A stretch of 64,000 nt of DNA from Candidatus Brocadiia bacterium (lineage in GTDB: Bacteria > Planctomycetota > Brocadiia > CAIUPP01), in assembly GCA_050015075.1 (NCBI GenBank), contig JBEKCB010000002.1, forward strand, positions 1 to 64,000, in the 5' to 3' direction. The first letter of the stretch is position 1, and each line of letters starts with the position of its first letter. A model generated the notes under the pieces. It worked only from the letters and a program-made list of their open reading frames with translations, was not told the origin of the DNA and made no database searches. Shown here piece after piece: positions 5,747 through 62,422 of the stretch. The position numbers and the translations under genes were made by a program.

Positions 5747-5849
5747 GTTCTTCGTAATCGTAATCCTAATCGTGCTCGTCCTCCGTTCCGCTGCAACGGT
5801 AAGCGGCGATTACGATTACGAGTAAGATTACGAGGTAATGAGTAAGAAC
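5747..5849. repeat. Inverted pair of 6-bp tandem arrays (CGTAAT-like / ATTACG-like)
   Basis: cgtaat cgtaat cctaat cgtgct cgtcct ... gattac gattac gagtaa gattac gag. Confidence 0.85.
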
Positions 5850-5873
5850 CGGCACATGCCGAACAGATGTGAT

Positions 5874-5902
5874 TTGACAGGACAATACATGTTACGTACA
5901 GT
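5874..5902 (+). promoter_or_regulatory. sigma70 promoter, probably giving a leaderless brnT mRNA
   Basis: TTGACA(5874)-17bp-TACAGT(5897); ATG at 5909; no Shine-Dalgarno. Confidence 0.65.
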
Positions 5903-5908
5903 TTACGT

Positions 5909-6199
5909 ATGAATGGGATTCGCTTCGAGTGGGACGAGAAGAAGAGCCGCGAAAATCGCCGGAAATATGGCGTGTCCTTCGACGAGGCGCAAACGGTCTT
6001 TCTCGACGACAATGCCATCCGGTTTTTTGACCCGGATCACTCAGCGGACGAGGATCGGTTTTTGATGCTCGGCATCAGCTTCCGTTTGCGAGTCCTTGTC
6101 GTCTGCCATTGCTATCGCGCCGGTGATGCGGTGGTCCGCATCATCTCCGCCCGAAAGGCGAATCGGAAGGAACAGCAAGTTTACTGGAGCCGGAAATAA
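5909..6199 (+). CDS. brnT: BrnT-family toxin
   Basis: FEWDEKKSRENRRKYGVSFDEAQTVF...EDRF...RIISARKA. Confidence 0.95.
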   Translation: MNGIRFEWDEKKSRENRRKYGVSFDEAQTVFLDDNAIRFFDPDHSADEDRFLMLGISFRLRVLVVCHCYRAGDAVVRIISARKANRKEQQVYWSRK

Positions 6200-6202
6200 G
6201 CC

Positions 6203-6421
6203 ATGAGAGCGCATTATGATTTTGCGAAAATGAAGGGCGAGCCGAACCCGTATACTAAACGCCTCAAGCAGCCGGTGACGATTCGCCTGGACAAAGCCAC
6301 CGTGGCCTATTTCAAATTGCTTGCGCGCCAGCTTGGAATCCCTTACCAGAGCCTGATCAACCTCTACTTGAGGGACTGCGTTCTGAACCACAAGCGGCTC
6401 GCTGTAAAGTGGGCATCGTGA
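6203..6421 (+). CDS. brnA: BrnA-family antitoxin
   Basis: YDFAKMKGEPNPY...VTIRLDKATVAYFK...IPYQSLINLYLR. Confidence 0.92.
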   Translation: MRAHYDFAKMKGEPNPYTKRLKQPVTIRLDKATVAYFKLLARQLGIPYQSLINLYLRDCVLNHKRLAVKWAS

Positions 6422-6482
6422 CGACGTTGGGCCGCACGTCCGGCGGCGCATCGGGTTGAGAGGTGTGGAGCGTCGGCGCCGT

Positions 6483-6932: not shown

Positions 6933-6940
6933 GCGCCGGC

Positions 6941-7261: not shown

Positions 7262-7302
7262 GCCGACATGCTACATCCGCCCGGCGCAAAGGTCAATGTC
7301 GG

Positions 7303-7331
7303 TTGCCCGCGCGATACCTGAGCGATATAAT
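7303..7331 (+). promoter_or_regulatory. sigma70 promoter of nifU-nifS
   Basis: TTGCCC(7303)-17bp-TATAAT(7326). Confidence 0.65.
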
Positions 7332-7378
7332 AAACTAAGTGGATCGAGGGGCACCGGGCCAGAGAGGAGAAGGCGACC

Positions 7379-8224: not shown

Positions 8225-9396
8225 AGGTGGTCTATCTCGACAACAACGCGACGACCGCTGTGGCGCCCGAGGTGCTCGAGGTCATGCTGCCGTTCCTCCG
8301 CGACCGCTACGGCAACCCGTCCTCCATGCATACCTTCGGCGGCACCGTCGCCCATGACATCCGCAAGGCGCGCGAGCAGGTCGCCGCCCTCATCGGCGCC
8401 GAGCCGGACGAGATCATCTTCACCAGTTGCGGCACGGAGAGCGACGTGAGCGCGATCCGCAGCGGACTCGAGACCGATCCGGCCAAGCGCCACATCGTCA
8501 CCACGCGCGTCGAGCATCCCGCCGTGCACTCGTTCTGCCGGTGGCTGGCCGACCACGGCTATCGCGTCACCGAGATCTCCGTCAACCCCGAGGGTCTGCT
8601 CGACCTGGCCGAGGTCGAGGCCGCGCTGGCGCTCGACACGGCCATCGTTACGGTCATGCACGCGAACAACGAGACCGGCGTCCTCTTCCCGATCGAGCGC
8701 ATCGCCGAAATGTGCCGCGAGCGCGGCATCCTCTTCCACACCGACGCGGTCCAATCCGTCGGCAAGCTGCCGCTGGACCTGAAGCGCACCGCCGTGGACA
8801 TGCTCTCCCTCAGCGGCCACAAGCTGCACGCGCCGAAAGGCGTGGGCGTGCTGTACGTCCGCAAAGGCACGCGGTTTACGCCGTGCATGATCGGCGGCCA
8901 CCAGGAGCACGGGCGCCGTGCGGGGACGGAGAACGTCGCCTCCATCGTCGCCCTCGGCAAGGCGGCCGAGCTGGCGAAAAACGCCATGGCCGACGAGAAC
9001 ACGCGCGTCCCGGCGCTGCGCGACCGCCTCGAAAAAGAACTCCTCGCGCGCATCCCGGACTCGCGCCGCAACGGCAACGCCAGGGAGCGCCTGCCGAACA
9101 CCAGCAACATCTCCTACGAATTCGTCGAGGGCGAAGCGATCCTGCTGCTGCTCGACCAGGCCGGCATCTGCGCCTCGTCCGGCTCCGCGTGCACCTCAGG
9201 CTCGCTCGAACCGTCGCACGTCCTGCGCGCCATGGGCATCCCGTTCACCTTCGCCCACGGCTCCATCCGCATGAGCCTCAGCCGCTACAACACCGACGCG
9301 GACGTGGACGCGGTGATCGCCTCGCTCCCCGGCATCATCCAGCGCCTGCGCTCCATCAGCCCCTTCACCCGCGACAATCCGGCCACCGGCGGGTGA
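8221..9396 (+). CDS. nifS: Cysteine desulfurase NifS
   Basis: YLDNNATT, SGHKLHAPKGVG, SSGSACTSGSLEPSHVL; ATG overlaps the nifU stop. Confidence 0.96.
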   Translation: MKVVYLDNNATTAVAPEVLEVMLPFLRDRYGNPSSMHTFGGTVAHDIRKAREQVAALIGAEPDEIIFTSCGTESDVSAIRSGLETDPAKRHIVTTRVEHPAVHSFCRWLADHGYRVTEISVNPEGLLDLAEVEAALALDTAIVTVMHANNETGVLFPIERIAEMCRERGILFHTDAVQSVGKLPLDLKRTAVDMLSLSGHKLHAPKGVGVLYVRKGTRFTPCMIGGHQEHGRRAGTENVASIVALGKAAELAKNAMADENTRVPALRDRLEKELLARIPDSRRNGNARERLPNTSNISYEFVEGEAILLLLDQAGICASSGSACTSGSLEPSHVLRAMGIPFTFAHGSIRMSLSRYNTDADVDAVIASLPGIIQRLRSISPFTRDNPATGG

Positions 9397-9511
9397 GGTT
9401 CAGCGTGGCGCGATTGCCCCGCGACATTCCTGACGAACAGGATAGCGTGAGCCTCCCGATTTTCCCGCAGCGCCCCGGCATCCGCTCAAGAGCATAAGCG
9501 CTTTTCTGAAT

Positions 9512-9527
9512 TGTTTCACGTGGAACA
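9512..9527. promoter_or_regulatory. parS: parS chromosome-partitioning site
   Basis: TGTTTCACGTGGAACA fits the 16-bp parS consensus TGTTNCACGTGNAACA. Confidence 0.85.
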
Positions 9528-9883
9528 ATCAGACTTCTTCTTCATCATACCGCCGCCATGCCGCTTCCATGACGCTTCAATGAAGCCGAAGCCGGGCCGC
9601 AATGACGACGAATGGCCCGCTCCTTGTCCGCAGAGCGGGCCATACCAGCGCGGCCGTGAAACGGCGGCGGAAAGGACAATTCGCGCGGCAAGCTCATTTG
9701 AAAAAACGAACCCGGCAACTCGGGACACATCATAATTCCGGCGTGTCGAGCCCGGCCGGGCAAGAGCCATGCTCCCGGAAATGCCAACCGCACTTTACCC
9801 GTTGACAAGCGCACGCACTTTCCCGCGTCCGCTCCGCGCCGAAATCCCCCATTATACTACTTACGGCAACGAAGTAGGGTTCC

Positions 9884-9965
9884 AACCGCAGATGGACGCC
9901 GATGAACGCAGATAAACGCAATCAAGGGACTCCGTATCGGCGTTCATCTGCGTCCATCGGCGGTT
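9884..9965. repeat. Inverted pair of 9-bp tandem arrays (ACGCAGATG-like)
   Basis: aaccgcagatggacgccgatgaacgcagataa ... tatcggcgttcatctgcgtccatcggcggtt. Confidence 0.85.
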
Positions 9966-10071
9966 CCCAACGTTTTCGACGTTATGAAATAAGTTCTTTT
10001 CAGGCTGACGAGTGATGTTCCTTCCGTCTCTTGCGCCTCTTCGCGGCTGAAACGGTTGCGCCGTCGTCGGT

Positions 10072-11142: not shown

Positions 11143-11164
11143 CGCGCGCTCCTTAGGTCGTCTC

Positions 11165-12616: not shown

Positions 12617-12679
12617 GCCCTGCTCTTTCACTCTGCCGGAACGCGGGTCCCGATTTTCCCGTTGCGCCCTTCGGCCGGT

Positions 12680-16138: not shown

Positions 16139-16240
16139 GGCTCTTCTCCCCTGGAAGAATAGAACGACGCTCCTGACAATTCTCACATTGTGGTGTCGGA
16201 CGCCTTCGCACTCTGCCAAATACTCAAGAGCCCCAACTCG

Positions 16241-18568: not shown

Positions 18569-18677
18569 GATTTGGAAATTGGGAGATTAGGAGATTGGGA
18601 GATTAAGCCCTGCTGTCTTTCCAGGGTTCAATCTTCCAATTACCCAATCTCCTAATCTCCCACTTTCCCAATGTCCC
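18569..18677. repeat. Inverted pair of 8-bp tandem arrays (GATTGGGA / AATCTCCC)
   Basis: gatttgga aattggga gattagga gattggga ... aatcttcc aattaccc aatctcct aatctccc actttccc. Confidence 0.85.
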
Positions 18678-19209
18678 AGTACGCGCGCAGGAAGTCAATG
18701 GCCGCCTTCGGCGTCGGCTCGATGCGGACGATGCCGCCGCGCGTGGGTTCGCTGCTGTTGGGCGCGCTGAGGACGGTCCGGTAGAGCGGCGCCCAGAAAT
18801 CGCCGATGAAGATCAGCGGTTTCGGCGGGATCAGCTTCTTTGCTGTAAACTCCCACGCCATGCCGATTTCCGCCAGCGTCCCGGTGGAGCCCTCGAGCGC
18901 GATGAACGCGTCGCTGCGGTCGAGCATCAGCCGAATGCGCTCCCAGAGATCCTGCGTCATCACCGATTCGCTGACGAACGGATTGACTTGTGAGGAGTAG
19001 ATCGCCACGGGGATGCCGAGAACGCGGCCCCCTCGTTCCCGCGCGCCGCGCGACGTCGCTTCCATCGTGCCGCCGTAGCCGCCGTTGAGCAGCGTCCAGC
19101 CGGCGCCGGCGATCTCGCGGCCGGTTTCCTCGGCGAGATCGTAAAGCCGCTCGCCGCGCGAGACGCGATTCGCGCCGAAAACAGCCACGACTTTTTTCGC
19201 TTTGGCCAT
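18652..19209 (-). CDS. LOG/lysine-decarboxylase-like family protein
   Basis: VAVFG, NGGYGGTMEA, SDAFIALEGSTGTLAEI (PGGxGTxxE-like). Confidence 0.88.
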   Translation of the reverse strand: MAKAKKVVAVFGANRVSRGERLYDLAEETGREIAGAGWTLLNGGYGGTMEATSRGARERGGRVLGIPVAIYSSQVNPFVSESVMTQDLWERIRLMLDRSDAFIALEGSTGTLAEIGMAWEFTAKKLIPPKPLIFIGDFWAPLYRTVLSAPNSSEPTRGGIVRIEPTPKAAIDFLRAYWDIGKVGD

Positions 19210-19210
19210 G

Positions 19211-30516: not shown

Positions 30517-30558
30517 AAATCAGCATTCGGCAATCCGCCTTCGCCAAGGCTGCGGCGG
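30517..30558. repeat. Short 7-bp array remnant plus REP-like hairpin
   Basis: aatcagc attcggc aatccgc followed by ccgccttcgccaaggctgcggcgg. Confidence 0.5.
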
Positions 30559-30572
30559 AAAAGTCGGCGATC

Positions 30573-31496: not shown

Positions 31497-31539
31497 CGAT
31501 GGACGATGGACGACAGACGATAGACCATGGACGATGGTC
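31497..31539. repeat. Single-arm 7-bp tandem array (GACGATG)
   Basis: cgatg gacgatg gacgaca gacgata gaccatg gacgatg. Confidence 0.8.
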
Positions 31540-33410: not shown

Positions 33411-33468
33411 CGCGCGTCCATTATACAGGGCGACGGCGAAGACGGCGACAAATGAAGACTAATTTTGG

Positions 33469-33574
33469 AACCACAGATGGACACAGATACGAATCGCTCT
33501 TGTTTTTTCTGCTTATCTGTGGTCATCTGTGGCGACAGGCAGCGCTCGGCCGCTCGCGCCGTCGCTCCGTGGTT
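33469..33574. repeat. Inverted 9-bp arrays (ACACAGATG-like), right arm interrupted
   Basis: aaccacagatggacacagata ... tatctgtggtcatctgtgg [GC-rich insert] tccgtggtt. Confidence 0.7.
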
Positions 33575-33661
33575 TCAATCCACGACAGGTTGGTTGCAAC
33601 GATGGTCAATGAACTTACAGCCGATTCGCCTCTGCCCCCGAGCCGCCCTGAGGAAACTCGA

Positions 33662-39980: not shown

Positions 39981-40065
39981 TCGTCCTCGTCCTCGATCTC
40001 GTCCTCGTCCTCGGTCGTAATAAACGGCCGTTCGAGGACGAGGACGACGACGAGGACGAGGACGA
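39981..40065. repeat. Inverted 6-bp arrays (CGTCCT / AGGACG) between cusB and cusA
   Basis: tcgtcctcgtcctcgatctcgtcctcgtcctcg ... cgaggacgaggacgacgacgaggacgaggacga. Confidence 0.9.
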
Positions 40066-43000: not shown

Positions 43001-43380
43001 GGCTGGACGCGGAGACCGGCGTCTTTATGCTCCTCTTCCTGGACCTTTCCTACCACGAGCGCGTGCGCCAGGGAAAGATGAAGAGCTTCGAGGACCTGAC
43101 CGAGGCGGTCGTTTACGGAGCGGTGAAGCGCATCCGGCCCAAGATGATGACGGTCTGCGCCGCGATGGTCGGCCTGCTGCCGATCATGTGGTCGGCCGGC
43201 GCCGGCGCCGACATGATGAAGCGCGTCGCCGCGCCCCTCGTCGGCGGGCTGGCCACGAGCTTTATCCTGGAGCTGCTCGTCTATCCGGCGGCATACACGA
43301 TATGGAAGTGGCGGTTTGAGATGCGTCGCGGGAGCGCGCAATCGGCCTCGTCCGCGTCCTCGTCCTCGTCCTCGAATTGA
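40090..43380 (+). CDS. cusA: CusA heavy-metal efflux RND permease
   Basis: LDAVPDLSDTQVII, IEDQVTYP, LGPDATAVGWVYEY, GSEFMPPL.EGDLLYMP, DPAPFSMMET, KRIRPKMMT. Confidence 0.96.
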   Translation: MVSRIIDFCARNRFLVIVLTAAAVALGVYCLLHIPLDAVPDLSDTQVIIYSRWDRSPDVIEDQVTYPIVSAMLGTPRVKAIRGFSDFGFSYVYVIFQDGTDLYWARSRTLEYLSKIQPRLPEGVRTELGPDATAVGWVYEYSVVDRSGQNNLAQLRSFQDWRLRYWLQSVPGVAEVASIGGFQKQYQVNLDPVALQAYHVPISKVVDALRAGNNDVGGRLVEMSGAEYMVRGRGYAKSVKDIEEIAVGASPEGVPILVKNLGRVALGADIRRGVADLDGQGDTVGGIVVMRSGENALSVIQRVKAKFEEIKPSLPPGVEIVPTYDRSRLIRESISTLTDELIAALIIVSIVILIFLWHIPSAIVPIITIPIAALLAFIPMYLLGVTANIMSLAGIAVSIGVLVDGAIVEVENAYKKLELWVEGGRVGDFHEVRLRALKEVGPSVFFSLLVIAVAFIPIFALEDQEGRLFKPLAYTKTFTMAIAALLAVTLDPAVRMLFARMDWVHFRPGWMSWIFNQVTVGRYYREEKHPVSRVLFRLYEGPCRFVIRHRVATVIVAALLVLLTIPVYLSLGSEFMPPLWEGDLLYMPTTLPGLSVTEAQRLMQRMDEVLMTVPEVDRVFGKAGRAETSTDPAPFSMMETTILLRPPAQWRPKERWYSNWPRWMQAPFRPVWPDHISKDDLIADMNAKMQFAGAANAWTMPIQTRIDMLSTGVRTPIGIKVLGGDPKQIEDIGTRIESVLKNQPGIRSVYAERAASGFFLDFELRRDRLARYGLSIGDAEMVITSAIGGETVTTTVEGRERYGVNVRYARELRDDLPALRRVLVPTPSGAQVPLEELAELRLVQGPGMIRDENGMLAGYVYVDTAESDIGGFVGRIKAVVDREIHPPVGCSLQWSGQYENMLRVKQRMRVVVPITLFLIFVLLYMNTKSLFKALLVMLAVPFSAIGAIGLLYVLGYNISIAVWVGLIALLGLDAETGVFMLLFLDLSYHERVRQGKMKSFEDLTEAVVYGAVKRIRPKMMTVCAAMVGLLPIMWSAGAGADMMKRVAAPLVGGLATSFILELLVYPAAYTIWKWRFEMRRGSAQSASSASSSSSSN

Positions 43381-43428
43381 TGTTCCGAACGGCCGAGGAC
43401 GAGGACGACGACGAGGACGAGTACGATT
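43340..43428. repeat. Inverted 6-bp arrays (CGTCCT / AGGACG) overlapping the cusA 3' end
   Basis: cctcgtccgcgtcctcgtcctcgtcctcg ... gaggacgaggacgacgacgaggacgagtacgat; left arm encodes the CusA Ser-rich tail. Confidence 0.9.
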
Positions 43429-43490
43429 GGGGCAGCACTTTCCAGCCTTTCGCGGGTTATGATACACTCACTGTCTGAGGCCAAGAACCC

Positions 43491-44827: not shown

Positions 44828-44909
44828 AATATCCAATTTCCAAGTTCCAATTTCCAACTGCGCAGCATCCGGTACTAATTGGATATTGGAAATTGGGATT
44901 TGGAAATTG
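44828..44909. repeat. Inverted 7-bp arrays (AATTTCC / GGAAATT)
   Basis: aatatcc aatttcc aagttcc aatttcc ... aattgga tattgga aattggg atttgga aattg. Confidence 0.88.
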
Positions 44910-49915: not shown

Positions 49916-50731
49916 ATGCCGGTCATAGATTTCCACGCGCATGCCTTCCCGGACGCGCTCGCCGCGCGAGCGGTGCCGAAGCTCGAGGATGCCGCGGAGG
50001 TGAAGGCGAAGCTCGACGGCCGAATCTCCTCGCTCCTGAAGTCCATGGACGAAGCCGGCGTCGAGCGCTCCGTGATCTGCTCGATCGCGACCAAGCCGGA
50101 GCATTTCGGGCCGATCCTCAAGTGGTCGCTGGAGATCGCCTCGGAGCAGATCGTGCCGCTCGCGTCGGTCCACCCGGCCGACCCGCTCGCCGCGCAGCAG
50201 GTGCGCGCGGTGGCCCGCGCTGGGCTCCGCGGGATCAAGCTGCATCCGTATTACCAGGGCTTCGACCTGGACGAGGAGCGCGTCCTGCCGATCTACGCGG
50301 CGGCGCAGGAGTGCGGGCTGATCGTGCTCTGCCACACCGGCTTCGACATCGCGTACCCGCGGGACCGGAAATGCGACCCGGCGCGGATTGCGCGCGTGAT
50401 CGAGCTGTTCCCCAAGCTGGCGCTGGTGACGAGCCACCTCGGCGCGTGGGAAGACTGGGACGAGGTCCGGAAGCACCTCCTCGGCAAGCCGGTCTACATG
50501 GAGACCTCGTTCTCGATCCCGTACCTGGGCCGGCCGGCGGCGAAGGCGCTCATCGAGGCGCATCCGCCCGAGTACCTGCTCTTCGGCACGGATTCGCCCT
50601 GGGCGGACCAGAAGGCCGGGATCGCCGAGATCCGCGCGCTGCGGCTGCCGGCGGAGCTGGAGCGGCGGGTCCTCTACGAGAATGCGCGCCGGCTGCTGGA
50701 CTCGAAAGGAAGTCCGAGGCGCGAATCATGA
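49916..50731 (+). CDS. Amidohydrolase-family metallohydrolase
   Basis: IDFHAH, GIKLHP, HTG, SHLG, LFGTDSPW. Confidence 0.92.
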   Translation: MPVIDFHAHAFPDALAARAVPKLEDAAEVKAKLDGRISSLLKSMDEAGVERSVICSIATKPEHFGPILKWSLEIASEQIVPLASVHPADPLAAQQVRAVARAGLRGIKLHPYYQGFDLDEERVLPIYAAAQECGLIVLCHTGFDIAYPRDRKCDPARIARVIELFPKLALVTSHLGAWEDWDEVRKHLLGKPVYMETSFSIPYLGRPAAKALIEAHPPEYLLFGTDSPWADQKAGIAEIRALRLPAELERRVLYENARRLLDSKGSPRRES

Positions 50732-52620
50732 ACGATAAAACACTTCATCATTCATCAGTCTTACCTCTGACTTCTCTCCGCTGGGCCCTGCTCGGCCTGA
50801 TTCTGCTGTTCGTCGCGTGCGAAACGGTCGAGGTGCGGTTCGCGCGGACGCTCCGCGGGGACGAGACGCTCTACATCCAGGCGGCCTACACGATGATGGA
50901 AACCGGGGACTGGCTCACGCCCCGGTTCGAGACCGGCGAGTTGCGCTTCAACAAGCCGATTCTGCCTTATTGGGTCGTCGGGATTCCGCTGAGCCTCTTC
51001 GGCCTCAGCCTGTCCGCCGCGCGGCTGCCCTCGGTGGCGCTGGCGCTGGCGGCGCTGCCGTTCGTTTATGGACTCGCGCGGGTGCTCGTGCGCGACCGCG
51101 CCGCGGCGCTTTTCGCGGTGGCGGCGTACCTGACGACGGAAGCGGTCTACAGCAACGCGCACCAGGCGCGGACGGACAGCCTGCTGACGTTCTGCGTCGT
51201 CGGGGCGATGTACTTCTTCGCGCGGCTGATCTTCGAGCCGGCTTGCCCTGAGCGAAGTCGAAGGGGCCACGAACGACGCGATGCCTTGCTGGCCTACGGC
51301 CTGACCGCCTGCGCGCTGATCACCAAGGGCATGGTCGGCATCGTCCTCATCCTGCTGCCGGTGGCCGTGTTCCTGTTGATCTCGCGGAAAGCGCAGAGCG
51401 CCGCCCATTCGGCAGGCTCAGGGCGGGCCCATTCGGCGGACTCAGGGCAGGCCCGTTCGGCGGACTCAGGGCAAGCCCGTTCGGCAGGCTCAGGGCAGGC
51501 CCGTTCGGCGGGCTCAGGGCAGGCCCGCTGGCGCATTCTCGCCTCGCCGTGGGGCTGGGCGCTGCTGCTGCTCATCACGGTCCCGTGGTACGCCGTCACT
51601 TACTTCCGATACCGCGGCGTGTTCACGAATATGTTCTTCGAGGACCAGGTGACGGAGAACCTGCACGGCTCGAAATGGTACATCCTCGGGAACGTCTTCC
51701 AGTACCTGTGGCTTCTCCTGAAGGACTGCCTGCCGTGGAGCGCGCCGGCGGTGCTGGCGGTGATCGCGAACGACGGCGGCCTGCGGGCGACCTTCAAAGA
51801 GCGGCGCGCGCAGTGGCTGTTCCTGCTGAGCTGGCTCGGCGTCACGTACGCCATCGTTCTGTTCGGCAATGTCGTCCGAGACCGGTACCTGCTTCCGGCG
51901 CTGCCGGCGGTCGCGGTGCTCGCGGGGCTGGCGGCGGCGAAAGCCGGCGAGGCCGACGCGCGCCCTCGCGGATTCGGGTGGGGACTTCAGCTCGTGGCGC
52001 TGTGCGCGTTCCTGATGGGGCTCGCGTGCCTGAGGCACGTCGAGGTGGAGTATGAGCACCCCGATGTTTATGAGGTGATCGCGGGACTGCTGCTGATGGG
52101 CGGCGCGGCGGCGATATTCCGGCTGGCGCGCTCCGGCCGCATGCAGCAGGCTGCACTCTGCGGCGGCGCACTCATGATGATAGCGATGCTGTCCGTCAGC
52201 GCGTTCTTCATCGCGCCGGCGCCGATGGAGCCGGCTGCCGAACTCGCGCGCGAGAAACTCGCCGGGCTGCCGGCCGGCGCGCAGGTCGCCACGGTCGGTC
52301 TGTCGAAGCAGGTGCGCGCCGCGGTGCTGCTGAACTGCGGCCTGAAGCCCGCCACGCTGACCGAGTCGAAAAAGCCCGCGGAGCAGACGGAAGCTCTCCG
52401 CAAGTTCCTCCAGGTACCGGGGGAAAAATTTGTGCTCATGGATTCGCGCGACTATACGGCTCTTGCGGAAGATGTCCGCGATCAGTGCGTCGTCGCCGCC
52501 GAGAGATCGGCGACGGAGGAACGCGACCTCGATCAATGGCTTCACGAATCGCCCCGCTCGCTCGCAGCGCTGATCCGCGGCACGCAGCAGACGCTCTATC
52601 TCCTCCGCGCCGATCATTAG
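50728..52620 (+). CDS. ArnT/GT39-family glycosyltransferase (paralog 1)
   Basis: DETLY..AA..M..GDW..P...RFNKP; ARTD; TKG; PWY; RYLLPALP. Confidence 0.88.
   Translation: MNDKTLHHSSVLPLTSLRWALLGLILLFVACETVEVRFARTLRGDETLYIQAAYTMMETGDWLTPRFETGELRFNKPILPYWVVGIPLSLFGLSLSAARLPSVALALAALPFVYGLARVLVRDRAAALFAVAAYLTTEAVYSNAHQARTDSLLTFCVVGAMYFFARLIFEPACPERSRRGHERRDALLAYGLTACALITKGMVGIVLILLPVAVFLLISRKAQSAAHSAGSGRAHSADSGQARSADSGQARSAGSGQARSAGSGQARWRILASPWGWALLLLITVPWYAVTYFRYRGVFTNMFFEDQVTENLHGSKWYILGNVFQYLWLLLKDCLPWSAPAVLAVIANDGGLRATFKERRAQWLFLLSWLGVTYAIVLFGNVVRDRYLLPALPAVAVLAGLAAAKAGEADARPRGFGWGLQLVALCAFLMGLACLRHVEVEYEHPDVYEVIAGLLLMGGAAAIFRLARSGRMQQAALCGGALMMIAMLSVSAFFIAPAPMEPAAELAREKLAGLPAGAQVATVGLSKQVRAAVLLNCGLKPATLTESKKPAEQTEALRKFLQVPGEKFVLMDSRDYTALAEDVRDQCVVAAERSATEERDLDQWLHESPRSLAALIRGTQQTLYLLRADH
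51241..51265. repeat. REP-like unit in frame in ArnT paralog 1
   Basis: gcttgccctgagcgaagtcgaaggg, encoding ACPERSRRG. Confidence 0.7.
51403..51522 (+). repeat. Five tandem 24-bp REP-like units in frame in ArnT paralog 1
   Basis: gcccRttcggcRgRctcagggcRR x5, encoding AHSAGSGR AHSADSGQ ARSADSGQ ARSAGSGQ ARSAGSGQ. Confidence 0.95.
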
Positions 52621-52695
52621 CTCCACTAGTGCTTAGTTGCGTAAAGGGTATTGCGTCGCCCGGGGCAGACAGCAAATTTGTATTTCCCATCGCCG

Positions 52696-54384: not shown

Positions 54385-54508
54385 CAGCCGCCAACGGCGA
54401 GCAGGACGCCGCTTGTTGATTTCCGGGCGCCGGTTCTGGTAAAAGAGCCCCTGAATACAGGCCATCGTGAACCGTTTCCCGCTCACCTCGTCCGTAAGGC
54501 AAAACCCG

Positions 54509-55804
54509 ATGACCGAAGGCGCCGGAGCTGGAGGGCCTGCCCTGAGCCGCGCTGCCGGCGCGGCAACCGCTCCCGCGCGTCGCGCCGCACCCCTGCCGTT
54601 CTGCCGGCCGACCATCGAGGATGCGGAAATCGCCGAGGTTGTCGCGTCGCTGCGCTCCGGCTGGATCACCACCGGGCCGAAGGTGGCGAAGTTCGAGGCG
54701 CTGTTCCGCGAGCGGTTGCGCGCGCCCGAGGCCATCGCCGTCAATTCCGCCACCGGCGGACTGCACCTGTCCGTCGCGGTGCTGGACCTGAAACCCGGCG
54801 ATGAGGTGATCGTTCCCTCGCTGACCTGGACGGCGACGGCGAACGTGGTCGAACTCTCCGGCGCGCGGCCGGTGTTCGCCGACGTGGACGCCGACACGCT
54901 CTGCCTGGACCCGGAAGACGTGGCCCGCCGGATCACGCCGCGGACGCGCGCGATCATGCCGGTCCACTACGCCGGGCAGCCGGCGGACCTCGACGCGTTG
55001 CGGGCGCCGGCGCGGAAGCACGGCCTGGTCATCATCGAAGACGCCGCGCATGCCATCGGCGCGTTCTACAAAGGCGTCGAGATCGGCGCCTCGGGCGACC
55101 TGGTGGTCTTCAGCTTCCACGCCATCAAGAACGCGACGACCGGCGAGGGCGGGATGATCGTCTGTCCCGCCGACGGCGGACGCTGGGCCGACCGGCTGCG
55201 CCGGCTGAGGCTGCAGGGCGTCGTCAACGGCCCGGACCGCCGTCCCGGTCGCGGGCCGATGGAATATGACGTCCTCGAACCCGGCTGGAAGTACAACATG
55301 ATGGACCTCCAGGCGGCCATCGGCATCCACCAGATGGCGAAGGTGGACGGCTTCATCGCCCGGCGGCGCGCGCTGGCGGAGCGCTACGCAGAACTGCTGG
55401 CGGACGTGAGTGAACTCCGCCCGCTCGGCGCCGTGCGTTATCCGAGCGTCCACGCCTGGCACCTCTACGTCGTGCAACTCGACCTCGAGGCGCTGGACAT
55501 TTCGCGGGCGGAGTTCGGCGCGCGGATGATGAAGGAAGAGAACATCGGCGTCGGGCTGCATTTCATGCCGGTCCACACCTCGACCTACTACAGCGGCAAG
55601 TACGGGTGCAAGCGCGGCGACCTGCCGAACACCGATCGCGCCGGCGACCGGATCCTGTCGCTGCCGCTCTACCCGCTCTTGAAGGAAGAGGACCTGGAAG
55701 ATGTGGTCCGCGCGCTGAAGCGCATGATCGCAGGGCACTTGAAACCACCAAGGCACAAAGGAACAGCGGCTACCACCACGGAATACACGGAGCACACCGA
55801 ATGA
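54509..55804 (+). CDS. arnB: UDP-4-amino-4-deoxy-L-arabinose aminotransferase-like (DegT family)
   Basis: SGWITTGPK, SLTWTAT, PVHYAG, EDAAHA, SFHAIKNATTGEGG, PGWKYN; start uncertain (54467 or 54509). Confidence 0.88.
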   Translation: MTEGAGAGGPALSRAAGAATAPARRAAPLPFCRPTIEDAEIAEVVASLRSGWITTGPKVAKFEALFRERLRAPEAIAVNSATGGLHLSVAVLDLKPGDEVIVPSLTWTATANVVELSGARPVFADVDADTLCLDPEDVARRITPRTRAIMPVHYAGQPADLDALRAPARKHGLVIIEDAAHAIGAFYKGVEIGASGDLVVFSFHAIKNATTGEGGMIVCPADGGRWADRLRRLRLQGVVNGPDRRPGRGPMEYDVLEPGWKYNMMDLQAAIGIHQMAKVDGFIARRRALAERYAELLADVSELRPLGAVRYPSVHAWHLYVVQLDLEALDISRAEFGARMMKEENIGVGLHFMPVHTSTYYSGKYGCKRGDLPNTDRAGDRILSLPLYPLLKEEDLEDVVRALKRMIAGHLKPPRHKGTAATTTEYTEHTE

Positions 55805-55889
55805 CTTTCCTCAACAGCTTCAGTGTCTTCCGTGTGTTCCGTGGTTGCAGCATCAGTTGGCGTTCTTGGTGCCTTGGTGCCTTGGTGGT
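55744..55889. repeat. Two nested inverted 9-bp-unit elements at the arnB-arnC junction
   Basis: Outer accaccaaggcacaaagg / cttggtgccttggtgccttggtggt; inner accacggaatacacggagcacaccgaa / ttcagtgtcttccgtgtgttccgtggt. Confidence 0.88.
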
Positions 55890-55916
55890 GAGAGAAAGCG
55901 TTTGGAGCAAGCAATC

Positions 55917-56876: not shown

Positions 56877-56878
56877 CC

Positions 56879-58594
56879 ATGCAGAAGCGCGTCGCGGCTG
56901 CCCTGCTGGCGCTTTTCGCGGTCGTGTACCTCGCCCCGCTGGGAATCCGGCCGCTCTACGAGACCGACGAATTCCGCTACGCAGAAATCCCGCGCGAGAT
57001 GGTCGCCAGCGGCGACTGGGTCGTGCCGCGGCTCGACGGGATGCGCTATTTCGAGAAGCCGGCGCTCGGCTATTGGCTGACCGCTTCGTCCATGGTATTC
57101 TTCGGTCAGAACCCGTTCGGCGTCAGGCTGCCGGTGGCGCTCTCCGCCGGCGGCGCCGCGCTGGCGCTCTTTCTGCTGGTCCGGCGCTCCTCCTCCGCTG
57201 AAGCCGCAGAGAACAGGCCCGGCGGAGTGGGCGCGGCGGCGGCCGCGGCGGGCATTCTGCTGACAAGTTTCATGTTCTACACGCTCGGCTGCTACAGCAC
57301 GCTGGATATGCCGCTGACGATGTTCCTGACCGCGGCGGCGGTCCTTTTCTATTTCGCGTTCGAGACGGAGAATCCGCGGCGCAAGGTGCTGTGCCTGCTG
57401 TTTTTCGGCGTCGCCGTCGGCTGCGCGTTCCTGACGAAAGGATTCCTCGTCTTCGCTTTTCTGTGTGCGGCGGGCGTGCCGTTCATGCTCTGGGAGCGGC
57501 GCACCGGAAAACTCCTGCGGCTGGCCTGGCTGCCCCTGCTGACGATGGCGCTGGTCGCGCTGCCCTGGTGCCTGATGATCCATCGGCGCGAACCGGACTT
57601 CTGGTCGCAGTTCTTCTGGGAGCAGCACTGGCGGCGGTTCTGGAGCGGGCGCGCGCAGCATGCCCAGCCGGCCTGGTTCTTCATCCCGTGGATCGTCGCG
57701 GGCATCCTGCCGTGGACGGCGCTGGCGCCGGCGGCGATCATCGGCCTCGGAAAGGAAAAGCTCAAGGACCCGCTGATCCGTTTCGCGCTCTGCTGGCTCG
57801 TGTTCCCGTTCCTCTTCTTCTCCGTCTGCAGCGGCAAGCTGCCCACATACATCCTGCCCTGTTTTCCGCCGCTGGCGCTGCTGATCGGCGTGGGACTGCA
57901 CCGGTATTTTGACCAGGGGCGGGGCAAGGCGTTCGTCGCCGGCGCGTGGGCCGTCATTCTGCTGCTCGATGTGGCCATGGTGGCGATCGTAGCCGTCAGC
58001 GCGACCGGCGGAGAGATTCTGGCAGGGCCGCTCGCGGAGGCTCGGCAATTTTTTTACCGGCCGAACGAACAATGGAAATGGCTGCTCCTCATTTCGGCGC
58101 TGGTCGTCTGGGCCGCGTTATGGTTCTGGGGGAGCCGGCCGAGCGTTGCGGTGCACCGGCTGGCGCTGCTGTGCGCGGGGCCGTGCCTTTTCATGGTGGC
58201 CGAGAACTGCGTGATGCCGCAGGCCGCGCAGGACTTCTGCGCGCCGGAAGCGTTCCTCGCGCGCGATTCCGCACGCGTCGAAGCCGGCGCGCCGCTTCTG
58301 GCGCGCGCCGGTCTAACTCACGCCGTCGCATGGCATTACAAACGCACGGATGTCATACTGCTCGACTCCGAAGGCGAATTCGAGTACGGTCTGCTGCACT
58401 CGAATGACAAGAATCGCGAGGTTGAACTGGACGATTTCGCCTCGTTCGTGGCAAAATACCCGCCGACGAAGCTGATTACGGTCCTCGTGGAGAAGGAATA
58501 CTACCAGGACCACCAGGCGCGGTTGCCGAAGGCCGAGTACGTGGACATGAACGCCGCCTTTGTCTTCGCGCAGTATCGAGGAACGGCCAGATGA
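56879..58594 (+). CDS. arnT: ArnT-family L-Ara4N transferase (paralog 3, most canonical)
   Basis: TDEFRYAEIPREM..SGDWVVPRLDGMRYFEKP; TKGF; HAQPAWFF; GKLPTYILPCFPPLA; GEFEYG. Confidence 0.9.
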   Translation: MQKRVAAALLALFAVVYLAPLGIRPLYETDEFRYAEIPREMVASGDWVVPRLDGMRYFEKPALGYWLTASSMVFFGQNPFGVRLPVALSAGGAALALFLLVRRSSSAEAAENRPGGVGAAAAAAGILLTSFMFYTLGCYSTLDMPLTMFLTAAAVLFYFAFETENPRRKVLCLLFFGVAVGCAFLTKGFLVFAFLCAAGVPFMLWERRTGKLLRLAWLPLLTMALVALPWCLMIHRREPDFWSQFFWEQHWRRFWSGRAQHAQPAWFFIPWIVAGILPWTALAPAAIIGLGKEKLKDPLIRFALCWLVFPFLFFSVCSGKLPTYILPCFPPLALLIGVGLHRYFDQGRGKAFVAGAWAVILLLDVAMVAIVAVSATGGEILAGPLAEARQFFYRPNEQWKWLLLISALVVWAALWFWGSRPSVAVHRLALLCAGPCLFMVAENCVMPQAAQDFCAPEAFLARDSARVEAGAPLLARAGLTHAVAWHYKRTDVILLDSEGEFEYGLLHSNDKNREVELDDFASFVAKYPPTKLITVLVEKEYYQDHQARLPKAEYVDMNAAFVFAQYRGTAR

Positions 58595-59490
58595 GCGTCA
58601 TCGTCATGGCGTACCACGAGATGGGCTGCACCGGGCTGCGGCTGCTGCTTGATGCGGGAGTGGATGTCTCGGCCGTCTTCACCTACGAGGACGATCCGGC
58701 GGAGAACTGCTGGTTCGGATCGGTGTCGAAACTGGCGCGCTCCCGAGGCATCCCGGCCTTCACGCCGCAGAACGTCAATGAGCCGGAATGGGTCCAGAAA
58801 ATCGAGCGCCTGAAACCGGAAGTCCTCTTCAGCTTCTACTATCGCGACCTCATCCGGCGCCCGATCCGTGTGATCCCGGCGCACGGCTGCGTCAACATGC
58901 ACGGTTCGCTGCTGCCGAAGTACCGCGGCCGGTCGCCGGTGAACTGGCAGCTCGTCAACGGCGAGACGGAATCCGGCGTGACGCTGCACTACATCACCGG
59001 CCGCGCGGACGCCGGGGACATCATCGGCCAGGAACGCGTGGAAGTCGGGCCGGAGGACACCGCCATCGTCCTGTACCGCAAGCTCCTGGCGGCGGCGGAG
59101 CGGGTGCTGCGCCGTCATCTGCGCGGGGTCCTCGCCGGCGACGCGCAGCGAATCAAGCAGGATGAATCGCAGGCCACCGTTTTCGGCGGCCGCAAGCCGG
59201 AGGACGGGCGTCTCGATTGGCAGCGCCCGGCATGGGAATTGCACAACCTTGTCCGAGCCGTCGCGCCGCCCTGGCCGGGCGCGTACACCTTCGCCGAGGA
59301 CGGCAAGGTGATGATCCTGCGCACGCGACCGTGCGAAAAGGTCCGTCCCGGCCCCGCGCTGAAGCCCGGCGAGGTAAGAGCGGCCGAAGACGGGGTTTTC
59401 GTCGGCTCGGCCCGCGAGCAGCTTCAGATCATGGCGTATGTCGCCCCGGCCCAGCGCGCGCTGCGGTCGGGAGAAATGCTGGGCGGGTGA
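58591..59490 (+). CDS. Formyltransferase (stand-alone ArnA N-terminal domain)
   Basis: MAYHEMG, ENCWFGSV, FSFYYR, NMHGSLLPKYRGRSPVNW, ADAGDI, PWPGA. Confidence 0.9.
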   Translation: MSVIVMAYHEMGCTGLRLLLDAGVDVSAVFTYEDDPAENCWFGSVSKLARSRGIPAFTPQNVNEPEWVQKIERLKPEVLFSFYYRDLIRRPIRVIPAHGCVNMHGSLLPKYRGRSPVNWQLVNGETESGVTLHYITGRADAGDIIGQERVEVGPEDTAIVLYRKLLAAAERVLRRHLRGVLAGDAQRIKQDESQATVFGGRKPEDGRLDWQRPAWELHNLVRAVAPPWPGAYTFAEDGKVMILRTRPCEKVRPGPALKPGEVRAAEDGVFVGSAREQLQIMAYVAPAQRALRSGEMLGG

Positions 59491-59568
59491 CGAAGGACGA
59501 TAAACGATGGACGATAGACCATAGAGCATCGTCCATAGTCCATCGTCAATCGTCCATCGTCAATCGTC
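59489..59568. repeat. Inverted 7-bp arrays (GACGATR / CATCGTC) between the arnA halves
   Basis: gacgaag gacgata aacgatg gacgata gaccata / catcgtc catagtc catcgtc aatcgtc catcgtc aatcgtc. Confidence 0.9.
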
Positions 59569-59586
59569 TCTTGAACGGAGAAAGAC

Positions 59587-60627
59587 ATGAAAGTGCTGAT
59601 CCTGGGCGTCAACGGTTTCATCGGCCACTCGCTCACCGCGCGTATCCTGAAGGACACCGACTGGGAAGTGTACGGGATGGACCTCGGCTCGGACCGGATC
59701 AGCGACTACCTGGGCCACAAGCGCTTCCGGTTCCTCGAAGGCGATATCTCGATCAACCGCGAGTGGATCGAGTACCACATCAAGAAGTGCGATGCCGTCC
59801 TGCCGCTGGTCGCCATCGCCACGCCGAAAACCTACGTGGACGCCCCGCTGCGCGTGTTCGAGCTCGACTTCGAGGAGAACCTGCGCATCGTCCGCCAGAC
59901 CGTGAAATACAACCGCCGCATGATCTTCCCCTCGACCTCCGAGGTCTACGGCATGTCGCCGGACACGCCGTTCAATGAGGAGACCAGCAACCTGGTGCTC
60001 GGCCCGATCTGCAAACAGCGCTGGATTTACTCCTGCGCCAAGCAGTTGCTCGACCGCGTGATCTGGGCGTACGGGCGCCACGCCCATTTGCGCTTCACGC
60101 TCTTCCGGCCGTTCAACTGGATCGGCCCCAACCTCGACGACATTGACGCGCCGAAGGAAGGCAGCAGCCGCGTGGTGACGCAGTTCCTCGGCCACCTGCT
60201 GCGCAACGAGCCGATCCGCCTGGTGGACGGCGGCAGGCAGCGGCGCTCGTTCACGTACATCGAGGACGGCATCGAGGCGCTGATGCGCATCCTCGAGAAC
60301 AAGGACGGCTGCGCCGACGGCCAGATTTTCAACGTCGGCAACCCGAGGAACGACTGCTCGATGCGCGAGCTGGCCGAATTGATGATCAGCGTCATGGAGA
60401 CGTTCAAGGAGTTCAAGGGAATCCGGAAGCGCGCGGTGATGCAGGACGTGGCCGCCGTGGATTATTACGGCAAGGACTACCAGGACATCCAGACGCGCGT
60501 GCCGGACATCACTCAGGCGCGGACGAAGCTGGGCTGGGAACCGCGCGTGAACCTGCGCGATGCGCTGCGCCGCACCGTGGCGTACTACGTCGCCAAGAAA
60601 GTGAGAAGCAAGCATGGCGGGCGCTGA
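59587..60627 (+). CDS. arnA: UDP-glucuronate decarboxylase/oxidase (stand-alone ArnA C-terminal domain)
   Basis: [52 protein letters not shown]. Confidence 0.92.
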
Positions 60628-62422
60628 AGGAACTTCATCAGTCGTCGCTCCTCCTTCGCACTTGCAATCCGGCCGGCACGGCTGGAGCATGGCGCGCGCG
60701 TTCTGGGTTGCGGCCGTCGCCGGCGTGCTGATCTCCTTCGCCGGCGTTTTCGATCACGCCCTCTGGACGCCGGACGAGCCGCGCGACGCCGAAGTCGGGC
60801 GCGAGATGGCCGTCAGCGGCAACTATGTCGTCCCGACGCTGGCCGAGACGCCTTTCCTTGAAAAGCCGCCGCTGGCCTGGTGGGCCATGTCCGGCCTGTA
60901 CAAGCTGTTCGGCGTCTCCGACGGCGTGGCGCGGACGTCGAGCGCGCTGGCGGGCCTGCTGACGCTGCTGCTGGTCTTCGACCTGGTGCGCCGCATCGCC
61001 GACCCGTTCGCCGCGCTGATGGCGACCCTGGCCACCGGCTGCCTGAGCGGCTTCTACTACGAGTATCACCGCGTGATCGTGGATCCGTGGCTCTCCCTGT
61101 TCGTCATGCTCGGATACTGGGGTTACGTCCTGGCGATGCTCCCGCCGCGCGAGGATGATTCAATCCGCAATCCGCAATCTGCAATCCGCAATCCCTCGCC
61201 CTGTCCCTGGGCGATCCTCATCATTTATCTCGCCGGCGGCCTCTCGTTCCTGGCCAAAGGCCCGGTCGGCCCGGGGCTCATCGCCGGGCCGGTCATCGTC
61301 AGCATCCTCTGGAACAGGCAATGGAATTTCTTCAGGTCGTGGATGCACGTTCCCGCCGCGGTGATCTTCCTGGCGCTCTGCGCGCTGTGGCCGTGGCTGC
61401 TTTACCGGAGCGGCGGCAGCGGACTCCTGAACGGATTCCTCGTGGATAGTCTGTTCGCGCGCTTCTTCCCGCCCGCGACGGGCCACGCCAGGACCGGCCA
61501 CCAGGAGGCTTTCTGGTACTACTTCGCCAACTTCCCCGCCTCCATCCTGCCGTGGCTGCTCGCCGTTCCGGCGATCTGCCATTGGTTCTGGCGCAAGCGG
61601 CTGCCGCAGGCTTGGAACCGGACCGCGCTGGTCTTCCTGGCGTGGGTCTTCCCGATCGGGCTGCTCATGCTGAGCGCGGCCGGGACGAAGCGTGAACTTT
61701 ACCTGCTGCCGCTCGTCGCCCCGTTCGGGGCGATGGCGGGCGCGTGGTTCGCCTCGGTCGTCAAGGATGAGCAACCGCATGCGATTGACCGGGTGACGGT
61801 GAGCATCCTGCTCGTCCTCTGCGCACTGTTCGCCTTCCTGGCGCTGCTCGGAGCGATCGGGCTGGAGACGGTGCGGTTCTACCTGACGCCGGAAGGCGCG
61901 CAGATGGCGAACCGAATCCCGCGCGTGAATCTCATCCTGTGCTCGCTCATAGGCGCCTTCTTCCTCTGGCTCTCATTCTTCGGAAGCCGCCTGCTGCGGC
62001 GCGGCCGGGCGCGCGTGGCCGCACTGGTCGTCTGGATCGCCTTCGGCCTGACGCTGACAGTTTGGCCGCTGGTCTACCGCTCGCTGGACCCGTTCAAGAA
62101 CCTCCACCACTTCACCGCCGACCTCGTGAAAATGGACGCTTTTTCGCCGGACCTCATTACCTGGAAGCCGGACGAAGTGACGCGCGGCACCATACCTTAT
62201 GACACGGGCCGATACTTGAAAGGCTTCGACGACGAGGGCCAGCTCGAGCGTTACGTCCAGGCGCACCCGGAGAGCAAGCTGCTGATGCTCGAACGGGATG
62301 TGCCGTCGCTGCCGGACAGCGTGGGCGACCGGCTGCGCATGATCCGGCATTGGGTCTTCAGCACGCATCGCGTGTACGCCCTCTATGACTTCGGCGCGCA
62401 GAAAAGCGTTCACGCAGAATAG
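60614..62422 (+). CDS. ArnT/GT39-family glycosyltransferase (paralog 4)
   Basis: [41 protein letters not shown]. Confidence 0.88.
61161..61194 (+). repeat. 7-bp array (CAATCCG) translated within ArnT paralog 4
   Basis: caatccg caatccg caatctg caatccg caatcc, encoding [12 protein letters not shown]. Confidence 0.9.

Follow-up and report, generated by a model that had tools for sequence, protein, structure and literature searches.

Gene-less inverted word arrays at gene junctions of a Brocadiia bacterium and their probable link to four-helix-bundle and GxxExxY cargo genes

The genome of this Candidatus Brocadiia bacterium (the source genome, G000) contains about 300 hairpins whose two arms are inverted arrays of a short tandem word and most of which carry no gene; a genome-wide scan assigned 296 pairs to 22 word families. 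Here we describe the members that lie in one window, the whole 64,000-nucleotide stretch analysed, and compare them with those of related genomes, above all a congener (G001). The elements are likely mobile DNA of the MITE or REPIN kind, moved without a conventional transposase. We are confident that they are mobile and that they are linked to cassettes with a cargo gene between the same arms.

Architecture and placement of the elements

All twelve sites of the preliminary description (nine with two arms, three with one) are present where they had been placed. The nine two-armed sites have folding energies of -27 to -73 kcal/mol, with z-scores of -4.6 to -12.2 (100 shuffles each). A detector blind to word families found 213 sites in the 2,055 intergenic stretches of the source genome and 0, 0 and 0 in shuffles, so the elements are far more frequent than chance would make them. 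Within the window, the same detector returned eight sites, namely seven of the nine and another inside a gene at 46269, and did not recover 5747 and 33469; local shuffles of the window gave no site in 37 of 40 cases and one site in 3 of 40. Trained on the genome's own families, a detector recovered all nine. Counts of single arms are noisy at the genome-wide threshold (636 in the real sequence, 389 and 380 in shuffles). Rfam gave no matches within the window. Two corrections apply to the first list: an eroded tenth element at about 50705-50780 was absent from it, and the site at 55744, entered as a single element, is two elements, one nested in the other (Table 1).

The units had been given as 6, 7, 8 or 9 bp long, but the true range is 6 to 10, the element at 9884 having a period of 10. 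They had also been described as differing from site to site, with structure rather than sequence conserved. Instead, every unit belongs to a genome-wide word family, and word and polarity are kept within each family, 296 pairs having the family polarity and one being reversed. As in MITEs, the elements are short, have terminal inverted repeats and occur in many dispersed copies; as in REPINs, the inverted doublet is the unit and singlets are its decay products.

The description of the sites as junctions inside operons applies to six of the nine two-armed elements, which by our own gene calls lie between co-directional genes, whereas 5747 and 33469 are at divergent junctions, 9884 is at a convergent one and the array at 61161 is not at a junction but in frame inside a gene. 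In the source genome, 203 elements lie between co-directional genes, 47 between convergent and 24 between divergent ones, against 2921, 435 and 415 of all its junctions, and operon-internal placement is no genuine preference of theirs. The donation of stop codons was confirmed, with stops within the elements at 18569, 43340 and 55744 and one touching 59489. Genome-wide, a stop lies inside 31 of 194 co-directional elements, and the median distance from stop codon to element is 19.5 nt. The occupied junctions of the window fall into no evident functional class. An unrelated REP-like repeat occupies some of the same junctions; hot spots may therefore reflect tolerance rather than targeting.

Table 1. 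Elements of the window, with alleles at the matching positions of relatives (G001 to G003, L240, L241)
Element	Positions	Strand	Location	Gene ends, relatives and cargo with the same word
Gene-less, 6-bp family F10	5747..5836	.	Divergent junction after PhoH2-like gene	Surrounding stretch missing from G001
Gene-less, 10-bp family F8	9884..9965	.	Convergent junction	Different insert in G001; word also brackets a GxxExxY gene at G000 C3:121326
Gene-less, 8-bp family F1	18569..18680	.	Upstream of argS	Contains stop codon of gene 18652-19209; another, 7-bp family in G001
Partial right arm (7-bp family F13) and 27-bp mini-hairpin	30517..30572	.	Between pyrD and pyrK	G001 lacks 45 bp
Single left arm, 7-bp family F2	31497..31537	.	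Upstream of pyrD	One also in G001; none seen in G002 or G003
Gene-less, family F6	33467..33575	.	Divergent junction	Word also brackets GxxExxY genes L084 and L085; a mini-hairpin of about 30 bp breaks the right arm in G000, the left in G001
Gene-less, 6-bp family F0 (45 G000 pairs)	39981..40065	.	Between cusB and cusA homologues	Common to G000 and G001
Gene-less, family F0	43339..43429	.	Replaces 3' end of cusA homologue	Stop of cusA homologue at 43378-43380; in G001 with a different loop, not in G002
Gene-less, 7-bp family F22	44828..44909	.		Left arm alone left in G001
Eroded, 7-bp family F9	50705..50780	.		G001 copy complete
Nested: outer 8-bp F4 arms, inner 9-bp F3 hairpin at 55775-55845	55744..55889	.		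arnB stop at 55802-55804
Gene-less, 7-bp family F2	59488..59569	.	Between two arnA half-genes	Old in the clade (G001, L240, L241), with unit turnover and erosion among relatives; word also brackets four-helix-bundle gene L057
Single 7-bp array, read in frame	61161..61194	+	Inside ArnT-like gene 60689-62422	Repeat-like sequence in five relatives, kind varies

Turnover between relatives

The elements are not fixed and syntenic among relatives. In the comparison with the congener, 117 of 758 junctions are occupied; 48 of these are present in one genome and absent from the other, 11 are filled by different families in the two genomes (2.0 expected, p 7e-7), 30 are shared, and erosion to one arm was seen at 22. 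Filled, empty and absent alleles all occur at orthologous junctions, the loop has been exchanged at some with the outer arms kept, and unit number differs between orthologous copies. The nested element at 55744 is a gain specific to this lineage: it is absent from four relatives (G001, L238, L239 and L240), and it took the place of about 30 bp at a junction where arnB and arnC overlapped. Near-full copies of it, loop included, are found at 27 unrelated sites, the best seven non-self matches having 91-94% identity.

One family has spread since the split from the congener. The 38 copies of F3 have a nearest-copy identity of 0.97, where orthologous elements have 0.82 and plain intergenic DNA has 0.85, and F3 reaches a density of 8.2 per Mb in the source genome against 0.6 per Mb in the congener. 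For F10 the densities are 1.3 and 15.8 per Mb; those of the congener rest on 1.58 of its 4.5 Mb, and the two assemblies are 93.6% (G000) and 91% (G001) complete. Because arm remnants are still present at several source-genome sites scored as lacking F10, the F10 excess may reflect decay there rather than spread in the congener. Furthermore, 27 of the 38 F3 copies adjoin F4 arms on at least one side, 10 of them on both, so the recognised ends could be those of F4.

Target sites were compared at 41 present/absent junctions, of which 33 had unmatched bases, 6 had overlaps of 1-11 bp and 2 had overlaps of about 50 bp, a crude comparison given flanks that diverge by about 15%. A target duplication of constant length, as in MITEs, was not found among them. 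In the stretches of two further genomes (G002 and G003) that match the window at 13 loci, words trained on the source genome gave one pair, which cannot mean absence because this detector is biased to the source genome. Among the matches listed for four DNA sequencing runs, whose contigs break at the repeats, none clearly skips an element at the level of strains.

Cargo genes between the same arms

The preliminary description mentioned similar arrays around four-helix-bundle and GxxExxY genes in other genomes, and the connection is supported: arms bracket 40 of 56 and 34 of 49 of these genes, respectively, compared to 3 of 300 control genes. Some arm pairs therefore do enclose a cargo gene. 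A strict screen of the source genome for short genes enclosed left and right by arms of one family returned one four-helix-bundle gene, three GxxExxY genes and nothing else, and no recognised transposase gene was found between the same ends in this assembly (93.6% complete). Together with presence/absence at junctions and the shuffle tests, the bracketing supports the proposal that the window copies belong to a mobile system as empty, non-autonomous elements. Across the class, PF05635 occurs in 57 of 61 genomes and PF13366 in 49 of 61.

Of the 13 cargo loci in the congener, 9 have no cargo at the matching junction of the source genome (L094 in part, L099, L070 and L062 in part being scored on BLAST spans). 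The counterparts of L053 and L085 are absent, that of L057 is down to one hairpin, and that of L090 has outer arms identical in kind with a different hairpin inside. Passenger genes occur as well, for example a 2.4-kb ABC cassette between duplicated hairpins in L239. Long F0 pairs of 700-1,000 bp that appeared to be filled were rejected as cassettes; the genes at C9, C11, C18 and C40 lie between separate hairpins, and the fifth such pair is C1:246404.

The GxxExxY cargo passes the family cut-offs of PF13366 (PDDEXK_3) and TIGR04256, and residues D67, E77 and K79 are invariant in 42 sequences. Its structure model (pLDDT 96.9) is closest to the Cas4-type SSO0001 (Z 8.0, rmsd 3.0, 99 aligned), and a match to Hjc (Z 6.4, rmsd 3.4, 87 aligned) is level with many other nucleases; these fold matches are generic, none having a Foldseek E <= 0.001. 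A PDB sequence search with the GxxExxY alignment gave no matches. The model and the invariant residues predict a PD-(D/E)XK nuclease fold with catalytic D...E-x-K residues. The four-helix-bundle cargo matches PF05635 and PDB entries 2gsc/2rld. To our knowledge, no catalytic activity is known for this protein. That two unrelated cargo folds occur in the same architecture is not explained by a single chemistry driven by the cargo. Counts of synonymous and non-synonymous codons (23/11, 5/3 and 17/4) indicate that the cargo genes are under purifying selection.

In tree comparisons, which exclude rows of fewer than 85 residues and loci at contig edges, the arm word tracks the clade of the cargo even where the hosts belong to different families. 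An F16-type word accompanies one GxxExxY clade (100/99) in hosts of two families (f4 and f5), and two 6-bp word families pair with the sister proteins L072 and L073 (100/99). The GxxExxY gene with the F3 word (C41) was found in the source genome only, and the four-helix gene with the F10 word (L072) in the congener only. Thus, each of the two strongest family excesses matches a cargo gene unique to that genome, a correspondence of two families in two incomplete assemblies. For F1 (30 pairs), no cargo gene was found in either genome.

Possible routes of movement and related systems

We lean slightly towards movement at the DNA level with assistance from the cargo. The hairpins would be gene-less copies of forms in which the same arms enclose a four-helix-bundle or GxxExxY gene, and they would be copied to new gene junctions, likely as DNA and likely aided by the matching cargo protein. 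The arms would serve as element ends, inverted arrays of putative binding sites, and not as a selected RNA stem. The 125-residue PD-(D/E)XK protein may cut at or near the arms, and host repair would then paste a copy into the junction, where it would take the place of between a few and some tens of bases with no fixed target duplication. Recombination between arms of one family would gain, lose or swap the loop, be it a cargo gene, a second hairpin or passenger genes. Because the four-helix bundle has no known catalysis, we propose that it could serve as adaptor to an enzyme of the host or one acting in trans, which is the weakest step.

A route through RNA is unlikely. It would resemble that of intervening sequences, with a stem for RNase III, reverse-transcribed copy-back and an Avd-like four-helix bundle as RNA chaperone, and the Coxiella 23S intervening sequence, as described in PMC4990558, has the same design and is an in vitro substrate of RNase III. 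The stems here are long and stable, but no covariation between own arms was found across elements of the source genome, and pairing between the two arms of an element did not exceed that with arms exchanged inside the family (93 of 249). In all 19 scorable cases (one weakly scored) the cargo gene has the same orientation as the gene upstream, and elements lie near stop codons, whereas gene-less copies occur in both orientations relative to transcription (F3 12/17, F0 18/13). Ragged ends without a fixed duplication would fit, yet the sole reverse transcriptase found in the source genome has no arms nearby. Among arm mismatches, the arms of GxxExxY genes have a non-significant G-U excess (95 vs 75, p 0.14), and F3 (68/34) and F0 (23/10) have one when oriented by their own asymmetry, their copies not being independent; G-U is balanced on the transcribed, host sense strand (302 vs 307) and on the strand of the four-helix cargo (85/86). 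Recent copying from an asymmetric master also yields no RNA signature, so these results weaken an RNA role without excluding it.

Somewhat less probable still is that the cargo genes are passengers, the arm word being shared by descent and all families being moved by a separate enzyme, such as a RAYT, the transposase of an IS or cruciform repair of the RecA type. The source genome has two RAYT-like Y1 transposase genes, but they bear their own, different inverted repeats. Unrelated genes also lie between duplicated hairpins (the ABC cassette in L239); the cargo genes, however, are intact and evolve under purifying selection. Tree concordance cannot tell co-inheritance from recognition, and F1 is abundant with no cargo gene found, whereas the two strongest family excesses coincide with cargo presence. 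As candidate mobilisers, the RAYT-like genes and the single reverse transcriptase were rejected, neither being flanked by these arms.

We consider it improbable that the elements are host-selected signals, whether protein-binding arrays or sites of mRNA processing or stability, that gene conversion reshuffles and that are not selfish. Some copies do persist across lineages, such as 59489, but 30 of 117 occupied junctions are common with the congener, and shared copies diverge like plain intergenic DNA. The stop codons supplied by 31 of 194 elements would suit such a role, as would the conservation of 83% of Xanthomonas heptamer repeats between two species (PMC4692102), against which stands the lack of an evident functional junction class in the window. 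An independent origin of simple-sequence repeats by slippage, with pairing by chance or local inversion, is refuted by the fixed polarity, the dispersed 55744 copies with their loop and the shuffle null, the variable unit number fitting slippage after insertion, and we give it almost no credence.

Several known systems come close to these elements, but published accounts cover only pieces of the combined class (the Coxiella intervening sequence and the Xanthomonas heptamer pairs), which is barely described. The 23S rRNA intervening sequence of Coxiella burnetii has a 28-bp stem, heptamer repeats and an S23p gene (PMC4990558). Like filled elements here, it has an inverted-repeat stem around a PF05635 four-helix gene whose ORF is preceded by tandem heptamers (PMC4990558); filled relatives elsewhere enclose such a gene, whereas the window copies are gene-less. 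In contrast to it, our elements lie at protein-gene junctions, with none of the window copies in rRNA, and most are gene-less, forming about 300 pairs in many word families with GxxExxY as a second cargo. The GGGAATC heptamers of Xanthomonas, with similar repeats in Nostoc, are short tandem arrays in inverted pairs, 70 and 75 of them (Rehm et al., 2015, PMC4692102). They, too, are intergenic and close behind stops (28 nt there), and their convergent and divergent shares of 16% and 7-8% compare with 17% and 9% here. The sections of that paper on these repeats deal with a single family, described as G-quadruplex formers whose loci are stable, and mention neither cargo genes nor mobility, whereas here there are 22 families, mostly not rich in G-runs, with high turnover and matching cargo.

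REPINs are extragenic, hairpin-forming inverted doublets; a genome may have several families, every one of them associated with a repeat-flanked small gene of its own (Bertels and Rainey, 2011, PMC3116915). Our elements share the inverted doublets, extragenic position and family-specific flanked small gene, but their arms consist of a tandemly repeated 6-10-bp word rather than short palindromes, and the flanked gene is not a HUH/Y1 transposase. No RAYT gene (PF01797) with the same arms was found; the two PF01797 genes of the source genome have other repeats and no strong arms. Prokaryotic MITEs, as outlined in PMC10969869, resemble our elements in being shorter than 500 bp and intergenic, with terminal inverted repeats, lineage-specific copy number and mutual insertion; they differ in their constant target duplication and transposase, the parent here carrying a PF13366 or PF05635 gene. 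A diversity-generating retroelement layout was not found in the source genome, where none of the three four-helix genes lies on the contig of the only reverse transcriptase found (C17). PDDEXK_3/GxxExxY is listed as of unknown function with multiple horizontal transfers (PMC3424549), in an entry that mentions neither flanking repeats nor gene-less derivatives, and the GxxExxY passage in PMC8934634 is not about repeats. The relevant text of MacGregor (2015, PMC4679880) treats direct heptamer repeats with no mention of four-helix or intervening-sequence genes, and Tsurumaki et al. (10.1101/2024.02.27.582315) report IVP genes scattered in rRNA insertions. No description of the arm-plus-cargo class was found in the literature searched, subscription papers and supplements lying outside its scope.

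Tentatively, and with less than even confidence, we suggest a widespread transposase-free class in which a cargo protein of about 120 residues, a minimal PD-(D/E)XK nuclease or an Avd-like bundle, reads its own word, giving rise to bursts of gene-less copies across the genome and to junction landing pads that exchange loops, hairpins and passengers; rRNA intervening sequences and bacterial heptamer repeats would be members. The genome pair names the protein-word pairs (C41 GxxExxY with F3 in G000, L072 four-helix with F10 in G001), which makes the question testable. The elements rewrite gene ends, supplying stops for arnB and cusA homologues and setting apart genes that overlap in relatives. 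If true, this reading would give a role to two abundant protein families of unknown function, PF05635 and PF13366, and would account for how ORF-bearing rRNA intervening sequences and the inverted repeat arrays of 6-10 bp in bacteria arose.

Hairpin elements and their word families

The hairpins are real and, in kind, are non-autonomous palindromic mobile DNA. They lie in a 4.64-Mb assembly of 66 contigs (the window is C2:1-64000), and the sequencing runs that contain window DNA are peat metagenomes. All twelve sites of the preliminary description, nine two-armed and three single arms, were recovered in the window, and the two-armed sites fold far more stably than their shuffles. A family-blind detector called 8 sites in the window, where none of 40 shuffles gave more than one; across 2,055 intergenic stretches of the genome it called 213, and three shuffles gave 0.

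A de novo search of the genome yielded 223 paired arrays, 202 of them with a spacer below 200 nt. The units differ between sites, which had been taken to mean that structure rather than sequence is conserved; instead, the arms cluster into genome-wide word families. A family-trained detector built from these clusters reported 296 pairs in 22 families and a single pair of reversed polarity, against 0 and 1 in two shuffled genomes, though it was trained on this genome itself and the family-blind detector is the fair test of chance. The element at 55744 matches 39 loci, 27 of which cover at least 80% of its length, loop included, and that at 39981 matches 73. Pairs may also be nested, family F3 within F4 ten times and F6 within F7 seven times.

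By our own codon-model gene prediction, six of the nine two-armed sites lie at co-directional junctions. Two others are divergent and one is convergent; the array at 61161 is read in frame as part of an ArnT-like gene. Genome-wide, elements broadly follow the background of junction types, with convergent sites somewhat in excess, and begin a median of 19.5 nt after a stop codon. The suggestion that they sometimes donate the stop codon is borne out, since the stop falls within the element in 31 of 194 cases.

Other repeats and neighboring genes in the source genome (G000) and its relatives (G001, congener; G002, G003, further relatives; C, contig; L, locus)
Feature	Location	Observation	Basis
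arn-type operon	window 50728-62422	Four ArnT-like genes; arnA split into formyltransferase and dehydrogenase genes	
Archaeal-type tRNA pseudouridine synthase Pus10, bacterial gene	window 32313-33410 (-)	DNA matches in G001, G002, G003	NCBIfam, 311 bits vs cut-off 200
Type III polyketide-synthase-like gene adjoining B12-binding radical SAM gene	window 10072-12631 (-)		both under family cut-offs
ArnT-like protein loop	window 61161-61194	Intragenic hot spot; in-frame repeat-derived sequence differing in kind/length among five relatives	
Mini-hairpin (27-35 bp, in or beside arms)	window 30534-30560	8 loci in G000	
Mini-hairpin (27-35 bp, in or beside arms)	window 33528-33562	6 loci in G000; insert of the 33469 element lies in the opposite arm in G001	
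RAYT-like Y1 transposase gene	G000 C26:66999-67643	Own ~20-bp inverted repeat, unrelated to tandem arms	
RAYT-like Y1 transposase gene	G000 C44:9902-10519	Own ~20-bp inverted repeat, unrelated to tandem arms	
REP-like palindromic repeat	G000 C2:158470 region and 87 others	88 loci vs 3 in 1.58 Mb of G001	
ABC-transporter-like cassette, three genes, 2.4 kb	L239:8710-11190	Separates the arnA half-genes; eroded copy of the 59489 (F2) hairpin on each side	
Toxin-antitoxin-like gene pair, small	L033 (G001 C65, matching window 9396-10072)	Between duplicated upstream-gene 3' ends, about 125 bp	by eye
Toxin-antitoxin-like pair	L242 (arnA junction)	Between duplicated upstream-gene 3' ends, about 30 bp	by eye

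Gain, turnover and cargo genes

Most of the window has a syntenic counterpart in the congener G001. G001 shares the sites at 39981, 43340, 59489, 33469, 31497 and 61161, lacks those at 55744 and 30517, carries another family at the 18569 junction and has lost the right arm at 44828; the surroundings of 5747 and 9884 differ between the genomes. Over 1.58 Mb of G001, counterparts in the source genome could be assigned to 758 junctions. Neither genome has a pair at 641 of these, 30 hold the same family, and 48 have a pair in one genome with nothing detected in the other; at 22 one copy is eroded, and at 6 there is a single arm of another family. The remaining 11 are occupied by different families, against 2.0 expected, which identifies junction hot spots.

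Comparison of orthologous junctions for filled and empty alleles uncovered both: at 9 of 13 cargo loci in G001 the matching junction of the source genome lacks the cargo. At L090 the outer arms are common to both and enclose a GxxExxY gene in G001 but an F1 hairpin in the source genome, at L057 a gene flanked by two hairpins corresponds to one hairpin, and at further junctions the F4 arms are retained with the loop swapped.

Direction of change was read from additional lineages, represented by metagenome contigs. Since the arnB/arnC junction is short and overlapping in G001 and in contigs L238, L239 and L240, the 55744 element is a gain in the source lineage; it took the place of about 30 bp and provided arnB with a new stop. 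The 38 copies of its inner family, F3, have a nearest-copy identity of 0.97, compared with 0.82 for orthologous elements; the family therefore spread after the split from G001. The 59489 element is old, its own units turning over. The REP-like repeat, for which no matching transposase was found, sits at some junctions where G001 has tandem-arm elements, and is a second lineage-specific burst.

The source genome carries three four-helix-bundle (TIGR02436) and five GxxExxY (TIGR04256) genes, with inverted arrays at all eight by eye and at six above the later score threshold. Among loci from this class, and with 7 and 1 contig-edge loci set aside, arms bracket 40 of 56 four-helix-bundle and 34 of 49 GxxExxY matches but 3 of 300 ordinary genes, confirming an association that had been suggested for other genomes. 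Four-helix arms are chiefly 7-mers and GxxExxY arms 9-10-mers. Protein trees (47 and 48 proteins) show that the arm word tracks the protein clade, across host families too, such that arm and gene travel together; that the protein may read the word goes beyond what the trees establish. Cargo and upstream gene share a strand in all 19 scorable cases, and synonymous changes exceed non-synonymous ones in three orthologous cargo pairs. The GxxExxY protein is confidently assigned a PD-(D/E)XK fold in which acidic and lysine residues are invariant, and structure comparison singled out no one specific relative; the four-helix cargo has matches in PF05635 and in the solved structure of XCC0516.

F3 is 13-fold denser in the source genome, where a GxxExxY gene on C41 has F3-type arms, and F10 is 12-fold denser in G001, where the four-helix gene of L072 has F10 arms. 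The C41 protein has no match above 42% among the GxxExxY loci of G001, and the L072 gene has none in the source genome. Several points caution against over-reading: these are two families only, F10 remnants persist at some source-genome sites, F3 travels together with F4 arms, and for F1 neither assembly contains a cargo gene.

Mechanism and relation to known systems

The data establish copying, turnover and the cargo link, upholding the proposal that the hairpins are empty members of a mobile system. We infer word recognition, cutting and a role for the four-helix protein. The arms would be inverted protein-binding arrays acting on DNA, copying would be begun by a nuclease and finished by repair, and arm-to-arm recombination would swap loops.

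Four-helix-bundle proteins resemble the retroelement protein Avd. An RNA route is possible, since the Coxiella IVS shares this design and is a substrate of RNase III (PMC4990558). Arm mismatches show no G-U excess over A-C on the transcribed strand (302 vs 307) or the four-helix cargo strand (85 vs 86), and a weak, non-significant one in GxxExxY arms (95 vs 75). Pairing is no better between an element's own arms than between swapped ones (93/249), and empty copies occur in both orientations. Mismatch parity, arm interchangeability and orientation together favor DNA-acting binding arrays over RNA.

In behavior the elements resemble REPIN and MITE families, yet they depart from the definition of each: no RAYT gene in the source genome bears these tandem-arm ends, and there is neither a transposase parent nor a fixed target duplication at the ragged element ends. 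Gene-less inverted heptamer pairs in Xanthomonas have the same placement statistics (PMC4692102), and the Coxiella IVS is the published filled four-helix form (PMC4990558). Within the limits of the literature searched, no paper was found to join these two into one class. The mobilizing chemistry is possibly new. What is added here is a quantitative allele census, a polarized recent gain (55744), a dated burst (F3) and named protein-word pairs that can be tested.
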